Source: Candidatus Parcubacteria bacterium
GTDB lineage: Bacteria; Patescibacteriota; Patescibacteriia; Magasanikbacterales; UBA922
Direction: 5' to 3'
Length of the DNA: 42,064 bases
NCBI GenBank assembly: GCA_002869205.1
Contig: PKTJ01000043.1
Coordinates: 1-42,064 of the forward strand
Within the stretch, counting starts at the first letter, position 1, and every line of letters starts with the position of its first letter. Below, piece after piece: positions 7,374-34,253 of the stretch. The notes below the pieces were generated by a model, which saw nothing but the letters and a program-made list of their open reading frames with translations, was not told the DNA's origin and searched no databases. The position numbers and the translations under genes were made by a program.

Positions 7374-10300
7374 ATGAATGTGATGAGGAAAAGACATCAT
7401 TATTTTGGTTCCATAAGACCTGGAAAAAAGGTCAATTTTTTGTATCTATGGGTTGGAATTATTGTTCTTGGTTTAGGGATTTTGGGAAGTTTATTTTTTC
7501 AGAGATTTGTATTTGCAGCTATTACGGATTATGAGGCAGTAGGGACATATGTTGTTTCTGATGGGGATGCAGGCACTTCGGTCGTAGTGGATGATGAATT
7601 AAATCCACATGTGTTTTATTCCACAGACACTACAAGTATTTGCGGTTCTGCCGATCGGTATGTGCATTCTTACAAGGATGAAGGTGTTTGGACACACGAG
7701 TGTCTGGATGCCGATGATAATAGTTCTACCAGAGGGTTTATTAGCGCGGTTTTTAGAAATTCAGGAGGGCAGCAACTGATTTATGTGGCATATAGGGCGA
7801 GTAATGACATGTCATTTAAATATAAACAAAAAACTACCGCACAGAGCTGGAGTGATGTAAGTTGGCAGGATGGATCTGCAACAATTACCTCTTCGAATGC
7901 TGTTGTGAGTTCGGCAGATTTGATTTTGGATGGTAATGGATATATTACACTGGCGTATATTGATGGTGACACGTCTGATGCTGATGCATATTTTTACCAA
8001 GATACTGACAATGATTTGAGCTTTGCTGATGAGACGAGGAAGACCATAGCGACCAATTTTCAGAGTTATGTGTATGGTTATTTCAATACAATTGAGCTTG
8101 CTCTTAGGCCGAGCACAGCTGATACGTTTAGTGTAATTTGGGGAACTGGTCCACAATATAGAAATATATCAAATCAAGCGAGGATTTATTATGAACATTA
8201 CGATGGCGATTGGGATAATACGGGTACAACGATTTGTGACAATGTAAATGGGTGTTATTCCCCATCTATCGCATATAGGAGTAACGGTGATGTGGTGGTT
8301 TCTTATTTTGAAATAGAAACTTATCCAAATAGCAGGCTAGAGACTGCGTACTATGATGATTCAGAGACAAGTTGGTCTACTAATAATCTAATAGCGACAC
8401 TTTCGAGCACTGAATGGCCTCATACCGCTATGACAGTAACAAGTGATGATCGAGTACATCTTTCATATGGTAATACGACAGGTGGTTTGGCTCGTTATAC
8501 ATATAGCGACACAGGTGTGAGTTCCTGGGCAAGTACCCAAAATATTGGATACATGGAAAAGAGGTTAGATATGTATCCTCGAGATACCTATGTGCATATT
8601 GCCGGTCATGCCGACACCTCAGAAGGTAGTGGGCGCATATATTACACCACGGATGATCCGGGTAACAATCCTCCGACCGTTACTGATATTAGTCCGCAGC
8701 AGACATCCACAAGTTTAGTTACTGTGACCACGACTATTGCGGATGCAAATAGTGATGTGACAAGTCTCATGGTCGAACATTCGACTGATGGAAGTTCTTG
8801 GTCTTCGAGTACTATTGGTACGGCAACACAAAATAGTGAAGGAGATGGTACAGTGACATCAACTGCTCAGATTACTGATATTGATACTGATAATGATGGT
8901 AGTGTTGATCTTACATTTACATGGAATGTAGGTGTGGATGTGCCAAACACAGAAACTTCCACAGTGTATCTAAAAATCACACCAAATGATGGTACGGTAG
9001 ATGGTGATGTGGTGAGTTCCACTGCTTTTGCTATCGATACAAGGGATCCTACTGTGCCGGGAAGTCTTAGTGTTAATACAACATCTACGCAAGCAGTCAT
9101 TTTAAATTTTGGCACAACGAGTACTGATAGTAATTTTTCTGAATATAAACTATTTTATAAGACTTCTAGCCCAGTTACAGAATCTGACACAGCGTTTACT
9201 TCTAGCTCTGATATAAATTTGGCTACCTCCACACTCAATGGAGTTTCCACAACTACTATTTCTGGTTTTGCTACAAACACACTTTATTATGTGAATATTT
9301 GGGCATATGATACATGGGGGAATGCGACTTCTTCCCCTAATGAAGTTAGTTTCTATACATTAGCAAACACTCCAACAGGACTTACCAATAGTGCACTTGC
9401 GACGAGTACGGCAAGTTTTAATGTTTCTGCGTTTAATAATGATTCATTAGGTTCTTCTGGATATTATTTTGATCTCACACTTACTGCCAATGGATCTTCT
9501 GTGTCTAGTTCGAGCTGGCAATCAGGGGACAACACTTGGTCTGTGTCGTCGCTTACACCAAATACAGGGTATACTATAGAAGCAATGTATCGTAACGGCG
9601 ATGGTGTGGAGACAGTCACTACGAGTTTGAGTTTTACAACATTATCAAATGAAATTTCATCTATAACTCCTACTGTGGATTCAGATACTCAGATTACGTT
9701 GGCTTGGACAGGAGATTCTACAGAGTATCGATCACAAAATTATACGATTAGTTCTACAACCGAATGGTCTGCCAACACATCTTCTGTATGGTCTGGTCTC
9801 ACACCAAACACGACATACGAGTTCTTGGTTCAAGGTAGTAATGGTTTGGGGGTCACAACTACATGGTCTAGCACGAGTACTGCAGTTACCTATTCTACTA
9901 TTCCTGCTTCAGTTTCTGCTACGCCAAATTCGTCTTCTCAAATTACTGTTTCTTGGGTCGCGGTAAATAGCTCGTGGTATCAAGTAGAGAGAGTTGACAC
10001 GAGTGCGACTTCATCGTGGACACAAAGTAACTCCATATCTTTTTCTGGATTGTCGGCAGATACAGAATATAGTTTTCGGGTAAAAGCAAAAAATTCACAA
10101 GATGATGAAACTGATTGGAGTTCTGCAGTGTCAATAACCACGGATGATCAGGTTGATACTGGTACAGGTGATTCTTGTTCAGATGTAGATAATCCGACAG
10201 GTGAGTTTACTATAAATAATGGAGATAAATATACGTCTAGTACAGACATTTTTTTCAATTTCTTTAATCTCAGCGAAGGTGCTTCAAAATATAGTGTTGC

Positions 10301-13300
10301 ACAAGAAGATAATTTTGTTGGATTGTCTTATGCTGCAATGAACGACGTTGATACGTTTAATTTTTCACTGTCTCCGGGTGAAGGAGAAAAGCAGGTTTAC
10401 ACCAAATTAAAACATAGTACCTGTAACAAAACTTCTGTGGTTAGTAGTACGATTATACTAGATGAAACTGCACCTATTTTTGCAGGGGATAATATAGAAA
10501 AGTTGCCAGCTGACACAAAAAATTATTTAGTTACACATTTAAAGTTTGATGAAGAGTCTGGGGAAACTGCACAAGATTCTGCTCACTCAAATGATGGGAC
10601 TATTGTTGGTGGTTCATCAATTGATAATGCAATTTCTTTTTCCGGATTACTTTTTGATGGTGATGATTATGTGACGATTCCTAATACTAATGACATTAAT
10701 TTAGGATTGCATGAACAGCGCTCTGTTAGTGTGTGGTTTAAAGTAGTAGATAAGGATTTGGCTACCAAACAAGTTATTTATGAAGAAGGAGGGCAATCAA
10801 GAGGTCTTAATATTTATGTCCACGATGGAAGTTTGTATGTTGGTGGTTGGAATAATGTAACTAGTGAAAGTCGTTGGACAGGCACTTGGCTCTCTACATC
10901 TGACATCGAAAACAATACATGGCATCATGTTGTCCTTACACTCAATGGTTTTTCTGATATCTATCCAGAAACTCTCAAGGCATATCTCGATAGTGAATTG
11001 TATGGTGCAGGAGAAGGTTCTCAATTGTGGGGACACACCGGGGATATTTCTATTGGGCGTAATGGTGATACAAAATTTCATGATGGCGGTGACGGTACTG
11101 ATGGTGAATATTTTGTCGGATCCATTGATGAGCTCGCTATTTTCAATGACAATTTATCAGCAGATGAGGTGGAGACATTATATAGTTCTATTTCAGTTGA
11201 TACATCATCTGAAAATACACGATCTGTGTTTAGAGGAAAAGTCGCAGATAATTATCTGGAGGATGTGCAGGTACATATGCGTTTGCTGCACTTTGAGCCT
11301 GGTGTGAGTAATCCTATCATTTCAGATATAGATGATGAGCTGTCTCTTCTTGATAGTATGTCTGAAATATTTTCTAATATAAATGTCTTGACTGTCGCGG
11401 CAATAACAAATCCAGAATATTATGTTGTCGAATCTGTCTCGCCAGCTGAGGATGGTAGTTTTGTTATCACTGTTCCTTTTTCTGAGGCAGGAGAATATAT
11501 AGTGGAGGTTCAGGCTGAAGACGGTGCAGGTAATGTGAGTAAATCATATACTAAGACATTGTCGCTCACAAGCTATGAAGAGATTTGTGGTGATCATATA
11601 GACAACAATGGTAACGATAGAATAGACGAAGGGTGCGGCTGTGATACAACTTTGAGTACTGATCCCGATGGTGACGGTATTGATGCCTATGAAGATAATT
11701 GTCCATGTGAGTATAATCCTCATCAAGAGGATGAAGATGGGGATGGTGTGGGTGATGCGTGTGATAATTGCATTGCAACAGCAAATCCGGCACAAGTTGA
11801 TTATTATGGGCCAGATGGTATTGGGGATGCATGCCAGTTGACTCCGGACAAATTTGTTTGTGATACGATTCCGTATATTACACTTGATATTTCACGAGCA
11901 GAAAATACTGGGGCGGGTGATTCACAAAGTAAAGTATTTATTGGTAACACCGATACCTCTGTAGAATCTGGTGACATTTTGTATTTGCGTGATTTCACCT
12001 CAGAGGGAGAGGGAAAAAACATGTACTACGATCAGACGGTCAGACAAAATGTTGGTGGTATGGCAGTCAGGCGTGGGCCGGGCTGGATCAGTTTAGTGTT
12101 ATACGGTCATCATGGTTCAGGGGCAGGAAAAGAAATTATGGATGTCGATTTTACCTTGAATGGAGCTCGTATTACTTCGTTTGAAAATGTAAATTTAGAA
12201 AATCAGGGCGATGGTAGACACACAGATAATGCTGGTCAAGACGAAGTTTATTTTTGGACAGAAGGGTATGAAAAGGGTATCAATCCTCCTTTTGGTATTG
12301 GTAGTAATCAGGTGCAGTCACGTCTTCGTGTTACAACACATCATGATGAGTTTTATATCAAATATAGATGTGATGATACAGGTGACCCACCACCTCCACT
12401 ACCTGACACAGACAAAGATACAATTTTGGACAAAGATGATAATTGTCCGTATGAACCAAATCGTGAGCAAGAAGATGGGGATGGAGATGGTAAGGGGGAT
12501 GCCTGTGATTATTGTCCTGATGTAAAAGAAGGTAGATTCGATTTTAGTGCAAATAAAAATTTTAAGAGTAGAGAACAAGGACATTTTGGTAAAGTGGAAA
12601 TTCCACCCCAACAATCCTATGAAAATAAATATGTCGATGTAAGTTGTTATAGATCTTTTGATCAAATGGGATATGAATCGTCAGACAAGTTTATGGCTCT
12701 CAGCGATATCTATAAGTATGAGTCAAGTGTGCAGTTCAATGATTCAGATATAAAAATTGCTTTTTCATTTGATCCAGAAGAGGTGAATGTAGAAGAAGAT
12801 GCAATTTATCGTAAGGTTGGTAGTGGATCATGGGAAAAGCAGGAAACAATCTTTGACACAGATACTCACACTGCATATGCCCATACAGATGGATTTTCTT
12901 ACTGGGTTTTGGCTCATGCGGATGGAGACCTTGTCATTGATACAGATGAGGATGGTATTCCAGATGACGTAGACAATTGTCCAACTGTTTACAATCCTCT
13001 TCAGGTTGATGAAGATGGGGACGGCATAGGTGACGCGTGTCAGGATGATGATGACGATGATGATGCAGAATGTGGTAACGATATAGTGGAAGAAGGGGAA
13101 GAGTGCGACGGTTCGGCAGAAGACGGATTTTATTGCAGTCTTTCTTGTAATCTCGTGCCGATCACATCAGATCCTGTTTGTGGTAATGGAATACTTGAGA
13201 CAGGGGAATCATGTGACGATAATAATAATATCAATGGGGATGGTTGTTCCTCGTCTTGTTTTGTGGAAGTCGACCCCGATGACCCTACAGATCCAGAAGA

Positions 13301-14408
13301 TCCTAATCCGACAAGTGGAGATCCTGAAGATCCAGAAGAGCCGTCTATTGGTGAATCAATTATAAATTTTATTACACCAGTCAGTGAACAAATTAAAAAA
13401 ATGGCTAAGGTGGTCCAAGATATAACTCGAAAAACTATAGAAGTTATACAAAAAGTAATTGACAACCCTCAAGTTGAGGAAGTAAATGAAAAAATAATTG
13501 TACCGGTGATTGCTACTGCAGGTGTTGCAAACGTTGCTATTGGTTTTCAATTCCCAAATATATTCATGTTCTTGCGCTACCTTTTTGGCCAGCCTCTCCT
13601 AGCTCTTCGTCGTCGTAAGCAAAAACAATGGGGGGTTGTGTATGATGCATTTACCAAGCAACCTGTTGGTCTCGCTACGATTCGTGTGATAGATACCGTA
13701 CAAAACAAAGTGGTGCGCTCACAAGTGAGTGATACGCAAGGAAGATATTATATTATTTTGGATCCAGGTACGTATCGTCTCGAAGTAATCAAACCAGGAT
13801 TTACCGGATTTAGTGAATATCTTGAACATAAGAATGAGGATGCAAGATACATTAATCTATATCATGGAGAAGATTTTGAAATAGTAGAAGATAATGGTGA
13901 GCTCAACTACAATATCCCTCTTGATGCTGTAGAAAAATCAGGAGAAACACATGCTATTCTCAAAGATTATACACATAAGTTGTGGCATTATGGTATCGGA
14001 CTATCTGGTGTTATTATTACTGCGGTTTCATTTATTATCTCACCAAATTTGATTGTGTTAGCATTTTTCTTCCTACATTTATTATTATTTGGCATTGCAT
14101 ATCAGTTTGGACACAAGAAATTAGGAGAGACGTGGGGTATTATTACTGCGTCCAAGACACGTAAGAAGATTGGTAAGGTGATTGTGCGTGTGTTTGATGC
14201 GCAATATAATAAACTCGTAAATACCGGTATTTCTGATCGCAAGGGAAGATATGCTATTTTGGTTGGTCCAAGTCGTTATTATGCAACATATGAAAAGTCA
14301 GGGTACAAAGAAAAGAGGGGTAATACCCTCGACCTATCGAGTGAAAAAACAGACGGAATGGGTGGTATTATTGGTGAAAATGAGGAGCTAGAGCATAAGG
14401 TAAAATAG
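7374..14408 (+). CDS. Giant exported surface protein, class B: propeller-like head, Ig/FN3 stalk, LamG domain, TSP3 and Cys-rich repeats, membrane-anchored C-terminal module
   Basis: About 2340 aa (ORF track starts it at 7338). Signal/TM ending VFA; FN3 (SGLTPNTTYEFLV); LamG (SVSVWFK, WHHVVLT, LKAYLD, FVGSIDELAIFNDNLSADEVETLY); TSP3 (DxDxDGxxDxxDNCP); CGNGILETGESCDD..GDGCSSSC; C-terminal TMs and carboxypeptidase-regulatory-like domains. Confidence 0.85.
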   Translation: MNVMRKRHHYFGSIRPGKKVNFLYLWVGIIVLGLGILGSLFFQRFVFAAITDYEAVGTYVVSDGDAGTSVVVDDELNPHVFYSTDTTSICGSADRYVHSYKDEGVWTHECLDADDNSSTRGFISAVFRNSGGQQLIYVAYRASNDMSFKYKQKTTAQSWSDVSWQDGSATITSSNAVVSSADLILDGNGYITLAYIDGDTSDADAYFYQDTDNDLSFADETRKTIATNFQSYVYGYFNTIELALRPSTADTFSVIWGTGPQYRNISNQARIYYEHYDGDWDNTGTTICDNVNGCYSPSIAYRSNGDVVVSYFEIETYPNSRLETAYYDDSETSWSTNNLIATLSSTEWPHTAMTVTSDDRVHLSYGNTTGGLARYTYSDTGVSSWASTQNIGYMEKRLDMYPRDTYVHIAGHADTSEGSGRIYYTTDDPGNNPPTVTDISPQQTSTSLVTVTTTIADANSDVTSLMVEHSTDGSSWSSSTIGTATQNSEGDGTVTSTAQITDIDTDNDGSVDLTFTWNVGVDVPNTETSTVYLKITPNDGTVDGDVVSSTAFAIDTRDPTVPGSLSVNTTSTQAVILNFGTTSTDSNFSEYKLFYKTSSPVTESDTAFTSSSDINLATSTLNGVSTTTISGFATNTLYYVNIWAYDTWGNATSSPNEVSFYTLANTPTGLTNSALATSTASFNVSAFNNDSLGSSGYYFDLTLTANGSSVSSSSWQSGDNTWSVSSLTPNTGYTIEAMYRNGDGVETVTTSLSFTTLSNEISSITPTVDSDTQITLAWTGDSTEYRSQNYTISSTTEWSANTSSVWSGLTPNTTYEFLVQGSNGLGVTTTWSSTSTAVTYSTIPASVSATPNSSSQITVSWVAVNSSWYQVERVDTSATSSWTQSNSISFSGLSADTEYSFRVKAKNSQDDETDWSSAVSITTDDQVDTGTGDSCSDVDNPTGEFTINNGDKYTSSTDIFFNFFNLSEGASKYSVAQEDNFVGLSYAAMNDVDTFNFSLSPGEGEKQVYTKLKHSTCNKTSVVSSTIILDETAPIFAGDNIEKLPADTKNYLVTHLKFDEESGETAQDSAHSNDGTIVGGSSIDNAISFSGLLFDGDDYVTIPNTNDINLGLHEQRSVSVWFKVVDKDLATKQVIYEEGGQSRGLNIYVHDGSLYVGGWNNVTSESRWTGTWLSTSDIENNTWHHVVLTLNGFSDIYPETLKAYLDSELYGAGEGSQLWGHTGDISIGRNGDTKFHDGGDGTDGEYFVGSIDELAIFNDNLSADEVETLYSSISVDTSSENTRSVFRGKVADNYLEDVQVHMRLLHFEPGVSNPIISDIDDELSLLDSMSEIFSNINVLTVAAITNPEYYVVESVSPAEDGSFVITVPFSEAGEYIVEVQAEDGAGNVSKSYTKTLSLTSYEEICGDHIDNNGNDRIDEGCGCDTTLSTDPDGDGIDAYEDNCPCEYNPHQEDEDGDGVGDACDNCIATANPAQVDYYGPDGIGDACQLTPDKFVCDTIPYITLDISRAENTGAGDSQSKVFIGNTDTSVESGDILYLRDFTSEGEGKNMYYDQTVRQNVGGMAVRRGPGWISLVLYGHHGSGAGKEIMDVDFTLNGARITSFENVNLENQGDGRHTDNAGQDEVYFWTEGYEKGINPPFGIGSNQVQSRLRVTTHHDEFYIKYRCDDTGDPPPPLPDTDKDTILDKDDNCPYEPNREQEDGDGDGKGDACDYCPDVKEGRFDFSANKNFKSREQGHFGKVEIPPQQSYENKYVDVSCYRSFDQMGYESSDKFMALSDIYKYESSVQFNDSDIKIAFSFDPEEVNVEEDAIYRKVGSGSWEKQETIFDTDTHTAYAHTDGFSYWVLAHADGDLVIDTDEDGIPDDVDNCPTVYNPLQVDEDGDGIGDACQDDDDDDDAECGNDIVEEGEECDGSAEDGFYCSLSCNLVPITSDPVCGNGILETGESCDDNNNINGDGCSSSCFVEVDPDDPTDPEDPNPTSGDPEDPEEPSIGESIINFITPVSEQIKKMAKVVQDITRKTIEVIQKVIDNPQVEEVNEKIIVPVIATAGVANVAIGFQFPNIFMFLRYLFGQPLLALRRRKQKQWGVVYDAFTKQPVGLATIRVIDTVQNKVVRSQVSDTQGRYYIILDPGTYRLEVIKPGFTGFSEYLEHKNEDARYINLYHGEDFEIVEDNGELNYNIPLDAVEKSGETHAILKDYTHKLWHYGIGLSGVIITAVSFIISPNLIVLAFFFLHLLLFGIAYQFGHKKLGETWGIITASKTRKKIGKVIVRVFDAQYNKLVNTGISDRKGRYAILVGPSRYYATYEKSGYKEKRGNTLDLSSEKTDGMGGIIGENEELEHKVK

Positions 14409-14425
14409 GTTAGGGTTAATTATTG

Positions 14426-14453
14426 AACACCATTGTAATAATGGTGTTTTTTT
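14426..14453 (+). terminator. Intrinsic terminator
   Basis: Stem aacaccatt-gtaat-aatggtgtt followed by a T tract. Confidence 0.7.
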
Positions 14454-14498
14454 ATCCCCATTTTTGGCTACGTAGACCTTACAACCAGCTCTTTTTAT

Positions 14499-14507
14499 TG
14501 ATATAAT
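14499..14507 (+). promoter_or_regulatory. Extended -10 promoter element (TGaTATAAT), possibly giving a leaderless mRNA
   Basis: Perfect TGnTATAAT ending 6 nt before ATG 14514. Confidence 0.5.
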
Positions 14508-14513
14508 TAGTGC

Positions 14514-17500
14514 ATGAAACACAATATGGGAAATGAAAATGTAAATGGCGCAAGTCAGCTTGTTTTTAAATATGCAGCCGTATTTTATATTTTTATTTTT
14601 TTGTGTTTTTCTGTCAGTTTGTTGAAGGTTGCGTCTGTAATAACGATATATGCTCAGCAAGATAAACTAACCGCAAGCGATGCCGCCGCTGGTGATAGAT
14701 TTGGAGATTCGGTATCTATAAGCGGAGATTATGCCATTGTAGGAGCTTATGCCGATGCTAGTTCTCAGGGTTCGGCTTATATTTTCAAACGAAGTGGCGA
14801 AACATGGACTGAAATAAAGAAACTAACCGCAAGCGATGCCGCCGCTGGTGATAGATTTGGAGATGAGGTTGCCATAAGTGGAAATTATGCTATTGTTGGA
14901 GCATATGCTAACGCTGATGCAGGCGCCTTTTCTGGTTCGGCATATGTTTTTTACAAAGATCAGGGTGGAGTAGACAATTGGGGAGAGGTAAAAAAATTAA
15001 CCGCAAGTGATGCTGCAGCAAGCGATGTTTTTGGTTTCAATGTGTCTATAGATGGAGAATATGCGGTAGTTGGTGCACATCAAAATGATGATGGCGGGTC
15101 TCTTTCTGGTTCGGCATATGTTTTTTACAAAGATCAGGGTGGAGTAGACAATTGGGGAGAGGTGAAAAAAATCATAGCTAGCGATGATGCCGCAGGAGAT
15201 CATTTCGGAGATGATGTTTCTATAAGTGGAAGTGTTATTGTGGTTGGGGCTTGGGGGGACAGTTCTTTTGCTGGTTCGGCATATGTTTTTTACAAAGATT
15301 ATGGAGGTTTAAATAATTGGGGACAGTATAAAAAAATAACAGCCAGTGATGCAGCGGCAAGTGATTTTTTTGGGGACAGTATTTCTATAAGTGGAGATTA
15401 TGTAGTTGTTGGGGCAATCGGCAATGATGATGTAGGTTCTGATTCTGGTTCGGCATATGTTTTTCAGAAAGGCGATTTTGAAACTTGGGGGCAGATAAAA
15501 AAATTAACAGCCAGTGATATTGCTGATAGTGATAATTTTGGTGTAGATGTTTCTATAAGTGGAGAGTATGTGGTGGTTGGTGCATATAAAAATGACGATG
15601 TGGGTTCTGATTCTGGTTCAGCATATATTTTCTATAAAGATGAGGGTAGTGTAGATAATTGGGGGGAACAAACTAAGATAACAGCAGATGATGCTGCAGA
15701 CAGTGATTTTTTTGGATGGAGCGTTTCCATAAGTGGAGATTATGCGAATGTAGGGGCTTATGGGAATGATGATGATGGAGCCTTGTCTGGTTCATCCTAT
15801 ATTTTTTATACTGCGCCGTCTAATGCGGCACCATCAGCCACAACTCTTACACCATCACAGACAACCGCAGATATTGTAATGGTTACGACAACAATTGCAG
15901 ACACTGATGGTGATCTTACCAGTTCTACGTTTCAATATTCTATCAATGGAATTGACTGGACCAATGCAACTATTGGAGATGTGACGCAGAACGAAGCACT
16001 TGATGGTGTTGTGACTTCCACTGGAAGTATTCAAGACATTGATACAGATACTGATGCTGATAACAGCGTTGACCTGACTATTGAATGGATGGTTTCTACT
16101 GATCTGCCAAACACAGCTACCAATACTGCACAAATACGCATGACACCAAATGATGGTACGACAGATGGTACGACTCAGACATCCGCAGTATTTTCTATTG
16201 ATACAGCCACACCATCTCCAGCACTTGATGCACTGACCATTAATACCACATCGACAACATCGGTAATTTTAAATCTATCCACTACTACTGATGACAACTT
16301 TTCTGAATATATTATTTATTATAGTACTTCAACTCCGGTAACAACGACGAGTACTGAACTTTCTTCATCTACATTTTCTTATTTTGCTTCGAGTACTTGG
16401 GAAGGAAATGTAACTACGACATTATCTTCGCTGACTACCAATACACTGTATTATGTAGGTCTTTGGGCATATGATAGTTTTGGTAATAGCACATCTACGG
16501 CAAGTGAACTTAGCTTTTATACACTGACACCTAATCCTACTAATTTTGCTACTACGTCACTTACCTCAAGTACGGTTGATTTTTATGTGGATTCATTTGA
16601 TAATTTTGCTTCGGGAACGTCTGGTTATTATTTTGATCTTGCGTTGTTTGGTGGAGCATCGGTGACAACTACAGGGTGGACGACATCGAGTAATATGTGG
16701 TCATTAGATTCGCTTACGCCAAATACACGCTACACTGCATCGGTAAATTATCGTAATGGTGATGGTGTCTTGGCCGCAACATCGACATTAAACTTTTACA
16801 CATTGGCGGAGGTTCCAGGTGCCTCAACTCTTGCTGACCCAACAAACACTACTGTTGATATTACGGTGAATGCAGGGAATAATCCTGCTGCGACTGAATT
16901 TGCACTCTACAATGTGACTGACAGTACGTATATAGACGGGAGTGGTGATGCATCGGGCACCGTCGTGTGGAATACAGCTACGGTTTGGGGCACGATAACA
17001 GCGAATGATCTCACACCAAATACCAATTATGAGTTTTATGTAAAAGCAAGAAATGCCAGCGAAATAGAGACTGCTTTTGGAAGTAGTGCAACGGCATACA
17101 CGGCAGCTGGTACGCCAACATCAGTTACCGCGTCAGTAAGTGGAAGTGATGTGACAGTGAGCTGGTCTGGGACAGCAGCCGCTTATTGGGTAGAAGATAA
17201 TTCTGATTCTACCCGTAATTCTGGTTGGATCACGGCGACAACATATACTTTTTCAGGTTTGAGCAACGGCGCATATACTTTTAAAGTAAAAGGGAAAAAT
17301 GCAGAGGATACTGAAACAGTATATGTTTCAGCTAGTGCTGTGCAGGTGAGTGTCGGCGGCGGCGGTTCTACTGATAGTGGAGATGGAAGCACGGATGATT
17401 CAAATGATTCTGATTGTTCTACAGTAGAAGAATGTAATGAAGAAATAGAAGAGGACGCAGTGGGTTGGATAAAAATAAATAATGGAGATTTGCAAACGGA

Positions 17501-20042
17501 CTCACATACTGTAACACTAGATATACATCATGATACAGCAAATTTATATAGAGTTGTTGAAGCCTTAGATTTTCAAGACTGTTCTGCAGAGGGGGTTTTT
17601 ACTGGAGGATTTACATTTTTTAATGGCCCAGACAGAACTAGACCTTTTACATTTTCTGATGGTCCGGGGGACAAAAAAATATGTGTAAAGTTTTATATAT
17701 CTGGCAAAGGAACAACAGCCCCATACACAGCGGCTATTAATGTGATCGGAGATGAGGAAGAGGTTGAGGAAATTATTCCGCATCCATGTGCTGATTCTCC
17801 ACCAAATATTTTGAAAATTCAACCGTATAATGTTGGTAATGTACCTATTGACGGTAGTGGAACTATGGATCTGGTAAAAAATAGTCGAAGTGGAAATATA
17901 GATATTACTTTTCAAACGTGCAAAGAAGCTACTTTGTATATGAAATATATTAGTGACGAGCCGTTTAGCGATGAAAATCTCGGTGAATGGATTGGAAGTA
18001 CTAAGCCGATCTGGAATGGAAGATTTCCTACACTTCGATTGGGGCATTCTGCTCTGGGATTATATAATTCCATAAGGTTTAAATTGTATGATTTTCCAGA
18101 TGTTATATATATGCGTTATGGTGTAAAGGCGCCATTAGCTTCGGCAGCTTTGGCATCTGTTGATCCAAATAATCCTGACATCTTGTTTGGAGATACAATA
18201 CAAATAGGTACTAATCCTGTTACAACAGTAGATCAATGTACTGAGAATCCGGATCTATATATCTGTAGTGGAGATCATGATGAGGATGGAATTATTGATG
18301 GACAGGATAATTGTCCAAGTCATGCAAATGCAGATCAATTAGATACTGATGATGATGGATTGGGGGATGTGTGTGATGAGTGTGTTGATGATGCAACAAA
18401 TACATGTGGTGATACAGATAAAGATAAGATACTCGATGATTATGATAATTGTTTAAATACACCTAATTTTGATCAGTTAGATACTGATAGTGATGGTCTG
18501 GGTGATGTGTGTGATGAGGACATTGATAATGATTCTATTCTTAACCTTTCTGATAATTGTCCATTAATTCCAAATGCAGACCAACTAGATACAGACGGTG
18601 ATGGAATTGGTGACGTTTGTGATATTCAAAACTCAGTTTGTAATAACAAAATTAAAGAAGGTGACGAAGAGTGTGATACATATGCTCCGGAAGGTTTTTA
18701 TTGTAATTTATCGTGTGAGTTGGTAGAGACTGAAGAAGAGTCAGTGTGTGGTAATAGTACTGTGGAGGCTGGTGAAACATGTGATGATGGAAATCTTATT
18801 TCAGGTGATGGGTGTTCGTCAGTCTGTTTATGGGAATCAGTAGAAGAAGATGTGGTAGAAGATAATGGAGAGGGTGAAGAAGGGGATGAAAGTAGTGGAG
18901 AGGCTGATTCGGGTGGAACAGAAAATGCACAAGGCAACGGATCAAATGGTAGCGACAACACTTCGGGAAGTTTTTTTACCAATATTGGTAATGGTGTTGT
19001 AGATACATTTAAAAAAATACGAGAAACAGTAGCAAATATTATACCAGAACAGGTGAAAGAAATGGCGCTTCAAACAGTTGAAGCAATTAGAAAAGTAATA
19101 GATAACCCTCAGGTTGAAGAAGTAAATGAAAAAATAATTGTACCGGCAATTGCCACCGCAGGTGTTGCCAACGTGGCCGTCGGTTTCCAACTTCCAAATA
19201 TTTTTGCATTTTTACGATATATATTTGGTCAACCACTTCTTGCTTTGCGTCGTCGCAAGCAGAAGAAGTGGGGAATTGTCTATGATGCGTTTACCAAGCA
19301 ACCTGTCGGACTTGCAATGGTGCGTATCTTGGACGCACAGACTAAGAAAGTGGTGCGTTCTCAGGTGACCGATGCTCAGGGACGTTATTATCTCATGCTT
19401 GATGCTGGTGAATATACTATCGAGGTGGTAAAGACAGGATTTAGTGGATTTAGTGAATATCTCAAGAATAAGGGTGAAGATGCAAAATATATTAATTTAT
19501 ATCATGGTGAGTCATTTGAAATAAAAGAAGAAAGTGGTGAATTGAATTATAATATTCCACTTGATGCGCAGAGTATGTCAGCTGGTACCAAGCAAATACT
19601 GAGAGATTATACCAGTAAGGTTTTGCATTACGGAGTTGGTTTGTCTGGTGTTGTCATTACCGCGATATCGTTTATCATTTCGCCAAACGCGATTGTGCTT
19701 GCATTTTTCTTTTTCCACCTCCTCCTATTCTCTGTAGCATACATGTTTGGTCACAAGTCATTGAAGGGTGGTTGGGGTACGGTGACTATTGAGGGTGGTG
19801 TGAAAAAACTTGGTAAGGTGATTGTGCGTGTGTTTGATGCTGAATATGATAAATTGGTGGGTACTGGTGTGACAGATCGAAAGGGTAGGTATGCAGTGCT
19901 TGTAGGTCCAAGCACCTATTATGCAACGTATGAAAAAGAAGGGTTTAAAGAAAAAAAGAGTGATACCATTGATCTCTCAAGTAGAAAAACAGATGGTATG
20001 GGTGGGATTATTGGTAGAGATGAGAAGCTTGAAAAGGAGTAA
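14514..20042 (+). CDS. Giant exported surface protein, class B: FG-GAP (integrin-alpha-like) propeller head, Ig/FN3 stalk, TSP3 and Cys-rich repeats, membrane-anchored C-terminal module
   Basis: 1842 aa. Seven KLTASDxxxxDxFGxxVSISGxYxVVGA...GSAYVF repeats; FN3; many DTDxDGxGDVCD TSP3 repeats; CGNSTVEAGETCDDGN..GDGCSSVC. The C-terminal ~315 aa is paralogous to the upstream gene. Confidence 0.88.
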   Translation: MKHNMGNENVNGASQLVFKYAAVFYIFIFLCFSVSLLKVASVITIYAQQDKLTASDAAAGDRFGDSVSISGDYAIVGAYADASSQGSAYIFKRSGETWTEIKKLTASDAAAGDRFGDEVAISGNYAIVGAYANADAGAFSGSAYVFYKDQGGVDNWGEVKKLTASDAAASDVFGFNVSIDGEYAVVGAHQNDDGGSLSGSAYVFYKDQGGVDNWGEVKKIIASDDAAGDHFGDDVSISGSVIVVGAWGDSSFAGSAYVFYKDYGGLNNWGQYKKITASDAAASDFFGDSISISGDYVVVGAIGNDDVGSDSGSAYVFQKGDFETWGQIKKLTASDIADSDNFGVDVSISGEYVVVGAYKNDDVGSDSGSAYIFYKDEGSVDNWGEQTKITADDAADSDFFGWSVSISGDYANVGAYGNDDDGALSGSSYIFYTAPSNAAPSATTLTPSQTTADIVMVTTTIADTDGDLTSSTFQYSINGIDWTNATIGDVTQNEALDGVVTSTGSIQDIDTDTDADNSVDLTIEWMVSTDLPNTATNTAQIRMTPNDGTTDGTTQTSAVFSIDTATPSPALDALTINTTSTTSVILNLSTTTDDNFSEYIIYYSTSTPVTTTSTELSSSTFSYFASSTWEGNVTTTLSSLTTNTLYYVGLWAYDSFGNSTSTASELSFYTLTPNPTNFATTSLTSSTVDFYVDSFDNFASGTSGYYFDLALFGGASVTTTGWTTSSNMWSLDSLTPNTRYTASVNYRNGDGVLAATSTLNFYTLAEVPGASTLADPTNTTVDITVNAGNNPAATEFALYNVTDSTYIDGSGDASGTVVWNTATVWGTITANDLTPNTNYEFYVKARNASEIETAFGSSATAYTAAGTPTSVTASVSGSDVTVSWSGTAAAYWVEDNSDSTRNSGWITATTYTFSGLSNGAYTFKVKGKNAEDTETVYVSASAVQVSVGGGGSTDSGDGSTDDSNDSDCSTVEECNEEIEEDAVGWIKINNGDLQTDSHTVTLDIHHDTANLYRVVEALDFQDCSAEGVFTGGFTFFNGPDRTRPFTFSDGPGDKKICVKFYISGKGTTAPYTAAINVIGDEEEVEEIIPHPCADSPPNILKIQPYNVGNVPIDGSGTMDLVKNSRSGNIDITFQTCKEATLYMKYISDEPFSDENLGEWIGSTKPIWNGRFPTLRLGHSALGLYNSIRFKLYDFPDVIYMRYGVKAPLASAALASVDPNNPDILFGDTIQIGTNPVTTVDQCTENPDLYICSGDHDEDGIIDGQDNCPSHANADQLDTDDDGLGDVCDECVDDATNTCGDTDKDKILDDYDNCLNTPNFDQLDTDSDGLGDVCDEDIDNDSILNLSDNCPLIPNADQLDTDGDGIGDVCDIQNSVCNNKIKEGDEECDTYAPEGFYCNLSCELVETEEESVCGNSTVEAGETCDDGNLISGDGCSSVCLWESVEEDVVEDNGEGEEGDESSGEADSGGTENAQGNGSNGSDNTSGSFFTNIGNGVVDTFKKIRETVANIIPEQVKEMALQTVEAIRKVIDNPQVEEVNEKIIVPAIATAGVANVAVGFQLPNIFAFLRYIFGQPLLALRRRKQKKWGIVYDAFTKQPVGLAMVRILDAQTKKVVRSQVTDAQGRYYLMLDAGEYTIEVVKTGFSGFSEYLKNKGEDAKYINLYHGESFEIKEESGELNYNIPLDAQSMSAGTKQILRDYTSKVLHYGVGLSGVVITAISFIISPNAIVLAFFFFHLLLFSVAYMFGHKSLKGGWGTVTIEGGVKKLGKVIVRVFDAEYDKLVGTGVTDRKGRYAVLVGPSTYYATYEKEGFKEKKSDTIDLSSRKTDGMGGIIGRDEKLEKE

Positions 20043-20091: not shown

Positions 20092-20121
20092 AAAACTCGT
20101 CATAATATTGGCGGGTTTTTT
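20092..20121 (+). terminator. Intrinsic terminator
   Basis: aaaactcgtca-taatat-tggcgggtttttt, a hairpin with G-U pairs. Confidence 0.6.
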
Positions 20122-20132
20122 AAATAAGAATA

Positions 20133-20183
20133 TACTTAATATAGCTCCTCCCTCTTTTTAAGAGGGAGGTCGGGAGGGAGTTG
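20133..20183 (+). repeat. REP-like palindrome, second copy of 190-240
   Basis: 47 of 51 nt identical to 190-240 by manual alignment. Confidence 0.85.
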
Positions 20184-20210
20184 TGTAGTATATAAAAGAG
20201 ACTTCTCTTC

Positions 20211-20389: not shown

Positions 20390-20521
20390 ATTTGTGAGTT
20401 TTATTATTTTTTATTGAGTTTCTCCCCGGACCCCCTTTGGTTATTCTGATTCATTCTCGGGTCTGGAAACCAGGGCTCTTTTTTGATACACTATAACTGT
20501 TATTTAATAATATATTTATAT

Positions 20522-21529
20522 ATGTCAAAAATCAAAGTAGCGATTAATGGATTTGGGAGGATTGGGCGTCATGCGTTCAAGATTGCAAAAGAGAACAAAC
20601 ACCTCGAAGTGGTGGCAATTAATGATCTTACAGATAATAAGTCTCTCGCACATTTGCTTAAATATGATACTGCGTATCCTGACACAGGGTATGAGGTTGG
20701 GTATGATGATGACCATCTGATTGTGGATGGTAAAAAGGTAAATGCATATTCAGAAAAAGATCCAAGTCAGCTTCCATGGAAAGACCTTGAGGTTGATGTG
20801 GTGATTGAATCTACCGGTGTATTTCGAACACGAGAGAAAGCCGGTTTGCATTTGGAAGCAGGAGCCAAAAAAGTCGTGTTGTCAGCACCAGGAAAAGGTG
20901 AAGGTATAGAGACATTTGTGAGAGGATTAAATTGTGAAAGTTATAAAGAAAGTAAGGCAGAAGTCATTGATAATGCATCTTGTACTACCAATTGTACCGC
21001 TCCCGTTATGCGTGTGATGGAGGATAGTTTTGGTATTGAAAAGGCAATGCTTACGACAATTCATTCATACACTGCTGACCAAAATATCCAAGACGGTCCA
21101 CACAAAGATCTTCGTCGTGCCAGAGCCGCTGCACAAAATATGGTACCGACTTCTACAGGTGCCGCTGTTGCTACAACCAAGGTGGTGAAAGAGGTCGAAG
21201 GAGTGTTTGATGGAATTGCGGTTCGTGTACCAACCATTACTGTTTCACTTGTAGACTTTAGTCTCGTGCTCAAAAAAGATGTAACAGTAGAAGAAGTAAA
21301 TGAAGCGCTTTCTAAAGCATCAAAAGGTTATCTCAAGGGAATCCTCGATGTCACAAACGAGCCGCTTGTATCCTCTGACTTCATTGGTAATGCATATTCA
21401 TCCATTGCAGACCTCGGAATGACTAAGGTCGTTGGTGGAAATTTGGTAAAAATTATTTCTTGGTATGATAATGAGTGGGGGTATGCGAACAGACTTGTGG
21501 AGATGGTAGAGATCGTCGGTAAGAGCTAG
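20522..21529 (+). CDS. gap: Type I glyceraldehyde-3-phosphate dehydrogenase
   Basis: VAINGFGRIGR, catalytic ASCTTNC, HKDLRRARAA and WYDNEWGY. ATG 20522 is preferred over TTG 20483. Confidence 0.98.
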   Translation: MSKIKVAINGFGRIGRHAFKIAKENKHLEVVAINDLTDNKSLAHLLKYDTAYPDTGYEVGYDDDHLIVDGKKVNAYSEKDPSQLPWKDLEVDVVIESTGVFRTREKAGLHLEAGAKKVVLSAPGKGEGIETFVRGLNCESYKESKAEVIDNASCTTNCTAPVMRVMEDSFGIEKAMLTTIHSYTADQNIQDGPHKDLRRARAAAQNMVPTSTGAAVATTKVVKEVEGVFDGIAVRVPTITVSLVDFSLVLKKDVTVEEVNEALSKASKGYLKGILDVTNEPLVSSDFIGNAYSSIADLGMTKVVGGNLVKIISWYDNEWGYANRLVEMVEIVGKS

Positions 21530-22053
21530 ATCCTGATTTCCGGATAATCCAGATTGACGGATATTGTGATTCAGATTTACAGATAAATTGTGGGGTTAAT
21601 TTATAATTTCCTATGTATGGAAAAGAAAAATTACTCTACAAAGATTTAACGTACAAAATTAGAGGAATTTTATTTAAAATTCATAATGACTTAGGAAGAT
21701 TTTGTAATGAAAAGCAGTATGGAGATGCTTTTGAGCAAGGTCTTACAGACGAAGGAATTGAATATGAGAGAGAAAAGATACTACATATTAGTTTTGTTGG
21801 AGAGAAAAAAGGACGAAATAGGATCGATTTTCTTATAGAAGACAAAATAATAATTGAGCTGAAATGTGTAAGTTGTTTAGGTCGTGGAGACTATCACCAG
21901 TGTCAGAGATATTTGAAAAGTAGTGGTCTTGATTTAGCTTTATTGGTTAATTTTAGACCTAGATATCTATTAATTAGAAGAATTTTAAATTATCAAAAAC
22001 ATAATAAGGAAGATGGCAATCCGTAGATCTGGATTATCCGGAAATCCGAATCT
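21528..22053. mobile_element. Putative GxxExxY nuclease cassette bounded by ~35-bp inverted repeats
   Basis: Left arm 21528-21562 and the reverse complement of the right arm 22019-22053 match at 31 of 35 positions, with a perfect 20-bp core gatttccggataatccagat. Mobility is inferred, not shown. Confidence 0.55.
21613..22026 (+). CDS. GxxExxY protein (PD-(D/E)XK nuclease-like)
   Basis: 137 aa with TYKIRG...HNDLGRFCNEKQY (GxxxExxY), RIDFLIEDKIIIELK, Q...YL and ALLVNF, all family hallmarks. Confidence 0.93.
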   Translation: MYGKEKLLYKDLTYKIRGILFKIHNDLGRFCNEKQYGDAFEQGLTDEGIEYEREKILHISFVGEKKGRNRIDFLIEDKIIIELKCVSCLGRGDYHQCQRYLKSSGLDLALLVNFRPRYLLIRRILNYQKHNKEDGNP

Positions 22054-22065
22054 CAAAGTATCCCT

Positions 22066-23268
22066 ATGAAAACCATAAAACAAATTCGTAATCTCAAAGG
22101 CAAAAATGTGCTTGTGCGTGTAGATTTTAACGTGCCGATAAAACGTGGCAAGGTGCTTGACGATACACGACTTCATGCATCGCTTCCTACGATTGAGTAT
22201 CTCATGAAGAAAAAAGCAAAAGTTATTTTGGTTACGCATATTGGACGCCCTGGTGGAAAGGTTGTTGCCAGTTTGAAAGTTGATCTGGTGGTAAAAAGAT
22301 TATCCGAGTTACTCAAGAAAAAAGTTACGAAACTTGAAACAGAAAATTGGCGTTTGAGTGACAAAAAGAAAATGAATCTTTTGAAAAAGATAGACAAAAT
22401 GCGTCCAGGACAGGTCGCTCTGATGGAAAATATTCGTTTTTCACAAGATGAGAAAAAAGATACTGGTACACTGAGTCAAGAACTTGCTAACTTGGTAGAT
22501 TACTTTGTACTTGATGGTTTCGCAGTGGCGCATAGACCATCTGCTTCGGTCGTAGGCGTAGCACAATATGTACCGAGTTATGCTGGTTTGCTTTTAGAAA
22601 GTGAGATCAAAGGTCTGGAGAAGGTTTTGCAAAAACCAAAGGCCCCTTTTGTCGTGGTGCTTGGTGGTGCAAAGATGGAGACTAAAGTTCCTGTTATGAA
22701 AAAGCTTGTTCCGTTGTGTGACTTTATGCTTATTGGTGGCGGAGTTCTCAATACATATCTCAAGGCAAGGGGGTACGGTGTAGGAAGTTCGCTTATTGAT
22801 ATGACATTCAAAAAAGAAGCTCTGAATTATGGAAAAAGGAAAAAAGTAATCAAGCCGGTAGATGTAGTTGTAGGTTCTCGCGATGGAAAGAGTTATCGTT
22901 TGGTTGCACTCAAGAAAACTCCACATAAAATCTGTAAAAAAGGTGAAGAAATACTTGATATTGGACCACATTCTATCAATTTATATTCACAATTTATCAA
23001 AGAGGCTGAAACATTGGTATGGAATGGTGCTATTGGATATTTTGAACAAAAACCATACGATATAGGGACTTTGTCAGTGGCACGTCTTGTTGCTGGTCGA
23101 TCAAAAGGTCAGGCCTATGGTGTGATAGGTGGGGGAGAGACTCTGCAGTCTATGGATATGGTTGGAATGACTGAATTTGTAGATCTTGTTTCTACTGGCG
23201 GTGGTGCCATGCTTGAGTTTCTTTCAGGCAAAAGATTGCCAGGTATAGATGTGGTGTGTAAAAAATGA
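22066..23268 (+). CDS. pgk: Phosphoglycerate kinase
   Basis: VRVDFNVP, HIGRP, MENIRF, LGGAK, DIGP, WNG, GGGET and STGGGAMLEFL motifs. Confidence 0.98.
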   Translation: MKTIKQIRNLKGKNVLVRVDFNVPIKRGKVLDDTRLHASLPTIEYLMKKKAKVILVTHIGRPGGKVVASLKVDLVVKRLSELLKKKVTKLETENWRLSDKKKMNLLKKIDKMRPGQVALMENIRFSQDEKKDTGTLSQELANLVDYFVLDGFAVAHRPSASVVGVAQYVPSYAGLLLESEIKGLEKVLQKPKAPFVVVLGGAKMETKVPVMKKLVPLCDFMLIGGGVLNTYLKARGYGVGSSLIDMTFKKEALNYGKRKKVIKPVDVVVGSRDGKSYRLVALKKTPHKICKKGEEILDIGPHSINLYSQFIKEAETLVWNGAIGYFEQKPYDIGTLSVARLVAGRSKGQAYGVIGGGETLQSMDMVGMTEFVDLVSTGGGAMLEFLSGKRLPGIDVVCKK

Positions 23269-32474: not shown

Positions 32475-32570
32475 ATTTTTTAGCTTATTTATTAATATAA
32501 TAACTTGTGTAAGTATATACCAAAAGGCAGGATTGAATCAATCCTCAAAATAGGCTATACTATCTCTACT

Positions 32571-34154
32571 ATGACAGGATCAAAAGTACCAAAAAAACAA
32601 GTAAAAAGTAAGCGTGAAGGACCTACGCTTCTTATTATTTTAGACGGATTTGGGCTTGCTGACCCGAAAGAAAAGGGGAATGCAATAACGCCTCAGACCG
32701 CGCCACATATTTTTGGGTATATGAAAAAGTATCCAAATTCAACACTCAAAACATATGGTGAGCATGTTGGATTGTTCAAAGGTCAGCAAGGTAATTCAGA
32801 AGCAGGGCACATGAATATTGGTGCTGGTAGAATTGTAAAACAAGACTTAGTTGAAATTTCAGACGCAATCCATAATGGGACGTTCTATAAAAAAGAAGCT
32901 TTCAAACAAGCTATTCATCATGTGAAGAAGTACAAAACTGCCGTTCATATTATGGGACTTTTGACTGATGGCAATAGTGCTCATGCGTATCCTGAACACT
33001 TGTATGCGACGCTTGAACTGTGCCGTCGTGAAAAAATAGACAAAGTTTATTTGCATCTATTTACTGATGGACGAGATTCACCTCCACATGCTGCGGCGAC
33101 GTATTTATACGAATTACGTGGGCATATGATGGCACATGAAAAGATAGCAACAATTATGGGGCGCTTTTATGGAATGGATAGAAATAAATATTGGGATCGT
33201 ACCAAACAGGCATACGAAGCTATGATACTTGGCAAAGGTTGTGCCGCCCCAAGTGCTGAAGAGGCAATATCTCAGAGTTACAATCGCAATGAAACAGATG
33301 AGTTTATTTGTCCAACGGTAATTGTCGAGGGAAATAAACCTGTGGCAACGATCAAAGATAATGATGCTATATTTTTTATTAACGCACGTAGTGATAGGGC
33401 GCGACAGATTACCAAGGTTTTTGTACAAAAGGATTTCAATAAGATGAATCCAGGAAGTTTCAAGCGTGCGAAGTATCCAAAAAACACACGATTTGTTGCT
33501 ATGACAGATTTTGGCCCAGATCTTGAAGGCATTTTTACGGTATTTCCATCTCCTGACTTGGTTGGCACTTTGCCAATGGCGCTTCACGAGAAGGAACAAC
33601 TATATATTGCAGAGTCAGAGAAGTATGCACATGTGACATACTTTATAAATGGTGGTTATGCAGATCATGTAGGAGGGGAAGTCCGTATGAAGATTGATTC
33701 AAAAGAAACAAAAAGCTATGACAAAAAACCTGAGATGTCAGCCGCAGGAGTTGCTGATGAAATTATTCGTTATTTAGAAAAAGATTACTTGGATTTTTGT
33801 TGTGTAAATTTTGCCAATCCAGACATGGTTGGTCATACAGGAAATCTTCAAGCAGGAAAGAAAGCAGTGGCAGAAGTGGATTCTCAGGTGAAGAGAATTG
33901 TTGACATAATTGTGAAAAAAAATGGACAAGCGCTTATTATCGCAGATCATGGAAATGCAGAAGTGATGATAAATAAAAAAACAGGAGAGATTATGACTGA
34001 ACATACCACTAATCCGGTGCCGTGTATATTGATCAAGAATAATATCGAAGGCATAAAAATTAAAAATGGTATTTTGGCGGATGTCGCACCAACTATCTTG
34101 AAGATGATGGGTGTGGAGAAGCCAGAAGAGATGACCGGAAAATCTTTAATTTAG
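32571..34154 (+). CDS. gpmI: 2,3-bisphosphoglycerate-independent phosphoglycerate mutase, copy 1
   Basis: IILDGFG, GNSEAGH (catalytic Ser), DGRD, GRFYGMDR, ESEKYAHVTYF, NPDMVGHTG, ADHGN and EHTTNPVP. ATG 32571 is preferred over TTG 32505. Confidence 0.96.
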   Translation: MTGSKVPKKQVKSKREGPTLLIILDGFGLADPKEKGNAITPQTAPHIFGYMKKYPNSTLKTYGEHVGLFKGQQGNSEAGHMNIGAGRIVKQDLVEISDAIHNGTFYKKEAFKQAIHHVKKYKTAVHIMGLLTDGNSAHAYPEHLYATLELCRREKIDKVYLHLFTDGRDSPPHAAATYLYELRGHMMAHEKIATIMGRFYGMDRNKYWDRTKQAYEAMILGKGCAAPSAEEAISQSYNRNETDEFICPTVIVEGNKPVATIKDNDAIFFINARSDRARQITKVFVQKDFNKMNPGSFKRAKYPKNTRFVAMTDFGPDLEGIFTVFPSPDLVGTLPMALHEKEQLYIAESEKYAHVTYFINGGYADHVGGEVRMKIDSKETKSYDKKPEMSAAGVADEIIRYLEKDYLDFCCVNFANPDMVGHTGNLQAGKKAVAEVDSQVKRIVDIIVKKNGQALIIADHGNAEVMINKKTGEIMTEHTTNPVPCILIKNNIEGIKIKNGILADVAPTILKMMGVEKPEEMTGKSLI

Positions 34155-34247
34155 ATCCTGATATTCAGATACCCGTAGGGCATCCCTCTTCGGGGATAAT
34201 CCAGATTTACAGATATCTGTAAATCTGGATTATCCGGAAATCAGAAT
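34152..34247. repeat. Gene-less copy of the GxxExxY-flanking inverted repeats, with a 42-bp perfect palindrome
   Basis: ggataatccagatttacagat|atctgtaaatctggattatcc at 34194-34235. It begins tagatcctgat as at 21527 and carries atctggattatccggaaatc as at 22027. Confidence 0.85.
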
Positions 34248-34253
34248 ATTATT

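Follow-up and report, generated by a model that had tools for sequence, protein, structure and literature searches.

A GxxExxY nuclease gene between inverted repeat arrays, with gene-less palindromic relatives, as a candidate mobile element in a Patescibacteria genome

We analysed a 42,064-nt stretch of DNA (the window) from Candidatus Parcubacteria bacterium (Magasanikbacterales; assembly GCA_002869205.1), which is one whole contig, PKTJ01000043.1, of a 1.06-Mb genome with 39% G+C, 67 contigs and 97% completeness (G000). Between its gap (20483-21529) and pgk (22066-23268) genes lies an element at 21527-22053 in which an open reading frame (ORF) for a 137-residue GxxExxY protein (21613-22026, plus strand), assigned to PDDEXK_3 by profile matches and to the PD-(D/E)XK nucleases by conserved residues and a structure model, is enclosed by two inverted arms, each a row of GAT-ending units of 8-9 nt that reads (T)AGAT, ATCCTGAT, TTCCGGAT, AATCCAGAT, TKACRGAT. 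The left terminal arm (21527-21564, plus strand) has the units TAGAT, ATCCTGAT, TTCCGGAT, AATCCAGAT and TGACGGAT, its first three bases being the TAG stop codon of gap (21527-21529), and is followed by a leader to the start codon (21565-21612, plus strand) in which units 3-4 recur as a partial second copy (GATTCAGATTTACAGAT, 21568-21584). The right terminal arm (22019-22053, minus strand) reads AGATTCGGAT, TTCCGGAT, AATCCAGAT and CTACGGAT on the minus strand and overlaps the last codons of the gene together with its stop codon (22024-22026). Over 35 nt (21528-21562 paired with 22019-22053) the arms are 89% complementary and share a perfect core of 20 nt, and this 20-mer occurs in the window at 21535-21554 (plus strand), 22027-22046 (minus strand) and 34223-34242 (minus strand), with 0.00 occurrences expected from 100 shuffles. 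An earlier note, made from the sequence alone, had placed the gene between gap and pgk inside inverted arms of about 35 nt with a 20-nt core, had put its stop codon inside the right arm, and had seen two elements begin at the TAG stops of gap and of a first gpmI gene (34152-34154); all of this was confirmed.

The encoded protein matched PF13366 (PDDEXK_3; E 6.7e-27, 94.6 bits, cut-off 22) and TIGR04256 (GxxExxY; E 2.5e-25, 89.1 bits, cut-off 35). Its predicted catalytic residues are E33, D72, E82 and K84, joined by Q96 and Y100; in an alignment of 75 sequences E33, K84, Q96 and Y100 were invariant, and D72, E82 and G28 were conserved in at least 90%. These positions would form an E...D...ExK core and a QxxxY motif, on which the predicted nuclease looks intact. 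The motif that defines the family has its G three residues ahead of the E; in the window protein it reads G28-RFCN-E33-KQ-Y36, with the G five residues ahead. Residues and an AlphaFold2 model (predicted local distance difference test score 91.5) together presented the E...D...ExK core and the alpha-beta-beta-beta-alpha-beta fold of PD-(D/E)XK nucleases. The structural neighbours given by Foldseek (lambda exonuclease and Cas4, best E 1.5e-3) and by VIA-align (the restriction endonucleases BpuSI, Z 7.9, and SwaI, Z 7.6; Cas4 SSO0001, Z 7.3; CinB and BglII, Z 7.0-7.9; Hjc, Z 6.1) would all place the model among the PD-(D/E)XK nucleases, with middling scores (Z<8) that indicate no single subfamily. 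Assignment as a junction resolvase was not supported, with T7 endonuclease I at a non-significant E of 0.056 in a profile search of solved structures and outside the 50 best structural matches, and a sequence search for a solved relative found none. The literature that we searched gave no account of mobility for the GxxExxY/PDDEXK_3 family, although papers beyond it cannot be excluded, and the portion of a superfamily survey that covers PF13366 lists its function as 'Unknown' (PMC3424549).

The same arms, head to head and with no gene between them, occupy 34152-34250 between two tandem gpmI paralogues (549 and 525 residues, within 32505-35831), as the earlier note had described. In this palindrome the left arm (34152-34214, plus strand) has the TAG stop of the first gpmI as its opening bases, and the right arm (34215-34250, minus strand) ends 3 nt short of the ATG of the second (34254). 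Its left arm, however, contains an additional 24-nt mini-hairpin piece (34171-34194, the 'B' arm variant) common to 12 arms in the genome. Within the element lies a perfect 42-nt palindrome (21+21 nt, 34194-34235), and the whole of 34152-34250 folded as single-stranded DNA at -23.6 kcal/mol (z -6.5).

Across the genome the arms proved to be far commoner than the two elements first described. The 20-mer core had 16 exact occurrences, and 60 when up to four mismatches were allowed. The arms formed 41 clusters, of which two belong to the gene-bearing element and 39 are gene-less loci (28 complete palindromes and 11 solo or degenerate arms); G000 has a single PF13366 gene. Half-site matches fell outside ORFs in 66 of 85 cases, in a genome of which ORF calls cover 89%. 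Most copies occupy the spacer of a co-oriented gene pair, abutting a stop codon at one end and a start codon at the opposite end. The proposal that the element inserts at stop codons therefore holds insofar as copies abut stops, but starts are abutted too, the host stop mostly lies 1-6 nt beyond the element end, and in other genomes copies sit in frame within genes. Gene-less copies have a centre of only 2-8 nt, the gene always stands exactly between the arms, and units 1-3 of the gene-bearing copy are the variants found most often in the family. Apparent 'joints' that skip 453-456 nt were considered as excision events at gap-pgk and rejected, since their sides of only 30-33 letters are other gene-less copies. 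Among sequencing data, the stretch was present only in the contigs of a single study, from which the window probably derives, and no RNA data set was listed as containing it. One solo arm (contig C10:34947-34958) lies within an ORF (C10:34361-35629, minus strand) whose reading frame is unbroken.

Comparison with relatives showed that these sites are variably occupied. In 18 relatives gap and pgk are neighbours; the junction lacks a GxxExxY gene in all of them, is a bare spacer of 7-44 nt in 11, contains other sequence in six and has a solo arm of the G000 arm family in one (locus L041 in genome G005). In other genera, at L036 (G006), L039 (G008), L049 (G031) and L033 (G013), it holds unrelated ORFs (600-750 nt) or a different repeat family, and AAGATT tandem units precede the insert in G008. 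The sister species of the same genus (G001) falls outside this comparison, its contig ending inside pgk; at its gpmI-gpmI junction there is no element, only TAA, an 11-nt spacer and ATG. Empty alleles were thus found for both junctions named in the earlier note.

We then paired G000 and G001 sites through their flanking genes, which placed 36 of the 41. Eight were occupied in both species, 12 held other sequence in G001 and 16 were short spacers; with three of these showing possible outer-unit remnants and one (#1) an ambiguous gap placement, at least 12 are cleanly empty. The sole GxxExxY gene of G001 lies at the orthologue of a gene-less G000 palindrome (C58:19523-19567) and not at gap-pgk, so that the gene has changed locus within the genus. 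It has decayed arms, and of the approximately eight true elements of the GAT-type family in G001, all seven that could be placed are also occupied in G000 and none is specific to G001. Since the placed elements of G001 all recur in G000, the family would have grown, or been kept, where the gene has consensus arms. At sites #9 (C10:34947), #12 (C12:22392) and #17 (C27:868), GAT units in G000 are matched by AAAGTT or AGTTC units in G001, the first of these being the solo arm within the ORF mentioned above; differing unit palindromes at shared sites suggest either common hot spots or the replacement of one family by another. Two complete palindromes in G000 (C11:9890-9934 and 10363-10407) stand on either side of a 138-residue ORF, which by its sequence we take to resemble ribosomal protein L13, and both are missing at the G001 orthologue.

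Arms of this construction are a general property of GxxExxY genes. PF13366 genes were present in 10 of 41 related genomes, with one to nine each, and a scan of species-representative genomes with a four-sequence alignment added 80 loci, by record titles mostly in Patescibacteria, with some in Omnitrophota and others. Among the 102 distinct genes with enough flank, 83 had flanking inverted repeats at z>5 relative to shuffles, compared with two of 136 neighbouring control ORFs, and four further genes that were added later all had arms. Typically the arms are about 40 nt long, are composed of tandem units of about 8 nt and lie at a median distance of roughly 16 nt to either side of the domain, and the unit sequence differs by clade (CAGAT, ACGAAT, TACAAAT, ACGAAA, CACAGAT, CTAAT and others). 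In records of cultured bacteria, arms were clear in Bacteroides (L266, downstream of radA) and Sphingomonas (L267, fabD-fabG) and marginal in Treponema; a Fusobacteria record had none, its gene being flanked by a direct repeat instead.

The arms also travel with their genes. Arm similarity rose with protein identity (Spearman 0.26, a value reached by 0 of 500 permutations), and the co-variation of GxxExxY clade with flank sequence that the earlier note had suggested testing was thereby detected. Only nine of 447 protein pairs at 50-60% identity shared any flanking gene, and none of the 16 closest relatives of the window protein (55-67% identical) had a flanking gene in common with it; nevertheless, six of these 16 (57-67% protein identity) kept the GATAATCCAGAT core in an arm. 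Because the contexts are unrelated and yet the core is retained, gene and arms appear to move as one unit, and the joint change of protein and short-unit arms hints at a modular mode of recognition.

In other genomes the element was also found inside host proteins. Of 109 GxxExxY domains, 22 lie within long host ORFs with both arms translated, and Pfam placed PDDEXK_3 inside LepA (L118, L120, L122, L125, L129, L131), RecG (L018, L093, L130), LeuRS (L095, L112), another class I tRNA synthetase, a P-type ATPase, GatB, transketolase and RecJ (further in-frame loci: L102; L089, L104; L098; L119; L025). The position of the in-frame copy was identical in LepA of six genomes and in RecG of three. Translated arms were peptides with an eight-residue period, and arm G+C was 51% for in-frame copies versus 32% otherwise. 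Pfam listed no Hint/intein domain in 11 in-frame host proteins, and no intron feature was found.

Gene-less arms were further compared with the arms of resident genes. The pattern GGATAATCCAGAT, with at most one mismatch, gave 61 matches in G000, 48 in G024, 27 in G009, 15 each in G001 and G005 and no more than 10 in any of the other 36 genomes. Of the 48 in G024, 42 were the CCTGAT variant, as found in the arms of its gene L029 (six of the 42 are L029's own arms); in G000 this variant accounts for one of the 61 matches. TACAAAT-type units had 21 matches in G008, where two genes bear arms of this type, and five or fewer in any other genome, and TACGAAA-type units had 15 in G005 and 13 in G024, each a genome with a gene bearing such arms. 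Arms can multiply in tandem, as in the right arm of L029 (G024:C25), which is repeated about five times, and in arrays of TACGAAA-type units with a 40-41-nt period on contigs C27, C71, C95 and others of G008. At L232, L242, L250 and L258 of G009, GAT-type arms (GCAGAT variant, 16 of its 27 matches) are spaced 110-190 nt, with a GTCACTCCGAG-type palindrome nested at the centre in three of the four (L232, L242, L258).

These cumulative results point to a selfish mobile element of previously undescribed kind, and our preferred reading, to which we assign a probability of roughly 0.6, is that of a mobile element with terminal inverted repeats whose sole gene is the GxxExxY nuclease, accompanied by derivatives resembling transposable elements of the miniature inverted-repeat type (MITEs) and moved in trans. 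What was observed directly is the anatomy of the element, its gene-less family, presence and absence at orthologous sites, the linkage of gene and arms in unrelated contexts, and intact catalytic residues. The segment 21527-22053 would be the single gene-bearing ('autonomous') copy in G000, its ends being the inverted arrays of about 40 nt built from 8-9-nt units, and the roughly 39 gene-less palindromes and solo arms, 34152-34250 among them, would be its non-autonomous, MITE-like derivatives. The nuclease would recognise the arrayed units in the arms of its own element, probably acting as a multimer across both arms or on an extruded hairpin, and cut at or near the element, after which host repair or ligation would copy or re-insert it; selection would then spare those copies that end up in the narrow gaps between genes or, in frame, in surface loops of proteins. 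The pairing of a gene-bearing with a gene-less form that the earlier note proposed thus gained support from the one gene and 39 gene-less loci, the empty junctions, the G001 gene at a palindrome site and the arms that accompany their genes.

Several points weigh against this reading. PD-(D/E)XK nucleases are DNA-hydrolysing enzymes that are not known to carry out strand joining, which leaves the integration step without an assigned enzyme. Pairs of filled and empty sites yielded no target-site duplication, the candidates AAT and TTATT being inconsistent, and the three G001 'empty' sites that look like outer-unit remnants may be losses and not sites that were never occupied. Co-variation of arm and protein is equally expected from co-inheritance of linked DNA. 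Repeats independent of a GxxExxY gene, which the earlier note held to speak against an element of this kind, exist in part: TACGAAA-type units had 72 matches in G008 and seven in G000 with no matching gene in either, no PF13366 gene was found in G009 (89% complete) beside its 27 matches, and none of the five genes of G005 has a GAT-type arm to go with its 15. In G024 and G008, on the other hand, arm type does match the resident gene. The Sphingomonas replicon holds only the two arms of its own gene and no gene-less copies. Finally, the search for transposases in G000 covered only five families: Y1_Tnp (PF01797), rve, DDE_Tnp_1, DDE_3 and the TnpB zinc ribbon gave no matches (the PF01797 profile did match in control genomes), and IS110, IS256, ISL3, IS91 and the serine and tyrosine recombinases were not searched.

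The main rival to a nuclease-driven element, which we consider unlikely, is that the palindromes came first and spread by other means, and that the gene is a homing-type passenger that cuts the palindrome centre and is installed there by repair. It would account for a gene that always stands exactly between arms whose gene-less centres measure 2-8 nt, and for the orthologous site that has the gene in G001 and a bare palindrome in G000. Palindrome centres do accept other insertions, as the nested elements of G009 illustrate, and the fixed in-frame positions in LepA and RecG are of the kind that homing elements occupy. An active enzyme, however, should convert or break palindromes, and 28 complete ones survive beside one gene in G000; the gap-pgk junction of most relatives is bare, not palindromic. 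Homing would also leave the spread of 39 gene-less copies unexplained, no other spreading agent having been found in G000 among the families searched. That gene-less variants match the arms of the resident gene in G000 and G024 fits derivatives, though it would fit preferred targets too.

Two further explanations fit less well than homing. In the first, which we hold to be improbable, the hairpins serve the host, for example in RNA processing or stability or as protein-binding sites between operon genes, and the nuclease, domesticated by the host, maintains them or acts on them. Copies do fill the spacers of co-oriented genes, conservation of the arm core exceeds that of the protein (GATAATCCAGAT in an arm of six of the 16 closest relatives) and seven sites are shared between the two species of the genus, but occupancy of orthologous sites between these two species is otherwise highly variable and the gene itself changes locus. 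Mismatches in the 28 complete palindromes had no strand bias relative to transcription (46 of G.U type versus 44 of A.C type on the sense strand), which does not support a reading as RNA structure. No terminator-like site was found in 21300-22300, and the genome's own terminator-like palindromes differ, with a run of T beside a GTAGAGACGC stem. The sole Rfam match, to a microRNA hairpin, was below threshold (42.9 bits against a gathering score of 90). PADLOC gave no match to a defence system, and PHROGs matches were only to families of unknown function. Promoter-like sites were no commoner than in shuffles, and no sigma-70-like site passed the scan in the leader (21565-21612). Least probable of all is an ordinary MITE moved by an unrelated transposase (unassembled, lost or of an unsearched family) with the GxxExxY gene as cargo between the arms, for although repeat families without a cognate GxxExxY gene exist and the assembly is in 67 contigs searched for five families only, chance capture would not recur with the same anatomy at 83 of 102 genes with many unrelated arm sequences, the arms at a median of about 16 nt from the ORF leave no space for another gene, and the same anatomy stands in finished records of cultured bacteria.

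Extending the preferred reading from G000 to the whole family is a more tentative step, to which we give slightly less than an even chance: GxxExxY (PF13366) proteins would be the nucleases of a widespread, unrecognised class of mobile elements with modular ends of about 8-nt units that evolve with the protein, which settle between the genes of operons and in frame in essential proteins (LepA, RecG, aminoacyl-tRNA synthetases, GatB), intein-like and with no splicing domain, and whose MITE-like palindromes fill dozens of spacers in small Patescibacteria genomes. If so, a large family known only by its motif name would gain a testable role, there would be an explanation for where the main intergenic repeat of such tiny genomes comes from, and a mobile element whose sole enzyme is a hydrolytic nuclease would raise the question of its integration route. 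In-frame copies make LepA or RecG look like fusions and so affect genome annotation, and they are natural cases of domain insertion in protein evolution. Modular recognition by unit-built arms would be worth study as a tool.

Further features were noted apart from this element. A parallel second system consists of small GIY-YIG genes (about 80-120 residues) flanked by inverted TGTCATCC...GGAATGACA arms (G000 C10:30052-30273, C41:19780-19992, C67:8764-8985 and others; G001 #2, #4, #7, #20 and #23), and gene-less palindromes of its arm kind are likewise intergenic. Upstream of the tandem gpmI genes, the window at 8800-20042 holds long paralogous genes with internal repeats of 165-174 nt and thrombospondin-like, Asp-rich repeats. 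A 66-nt repeat with a CTCCCTCTT..AAGAGGGAG hairpin occurs at 178-243 and 20121-20186 (85% identical), one copy lying downstream of an ORF of 1842 residues and upstream of gap.

Among known systems, insertion sequences and their MITEs resemble the proposed element in having terminal inverted repeats common to a coding copy and many short non-coding copies, in an occupancy that differs among close relatives and in copies that are mostly intergenic. They differ in that here no recognised transposase was found among the five families searched, no target-site duplication is consistent, and the gene-less copies retain the two arms only. Homing endonuclease genes are likewise small selfish nuclease genes wedged between conserved genes (here gap-pgk, and fabD-fabG in Sphingomonas) and, like inteins, occupy fixed in-frame sites within essential, conserved proteins in other genomes; unlike them, the present gene carries long inverted arms and has many gene-less derivatives, and unlike inteins, the 11 fused proteins have no Hint/intein domain by Pfam. 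Rickettsia palindromic elements are also inserted in frame in coding genes and translated, and the review that describes them names no encoded enzyme (PMC10969869); the element described here contains a nuclease gene, its sequences are unrelated and its hosts are different.

The analogy drawn by the earlier note was to REP-associated tyrosine transposases (RAYTs) and the repetitive extragenic palindromic (REP) doublets known as REPINs, and it holds in part. In both cases a small single-copy gene lies between inverted palindromic repeats that are also present as many gene-less intergenic copies, and in both there are fewer repeats where the copy with the gene has decayed, as in G001 compared with G000. 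The enzymes differ, being a Y1 HUH transposase there and a PD-(D/E)XK nuclease here, and so do the repeats, which are REP hairpins there and arrays of 8-9-nt units here. RAYTs are described as vertically inherited single-copy genes, whereas the GxxExxY gene is not fixed at one locus: its position varies inside a single genus, and its contexts in different genomes are unrelated.

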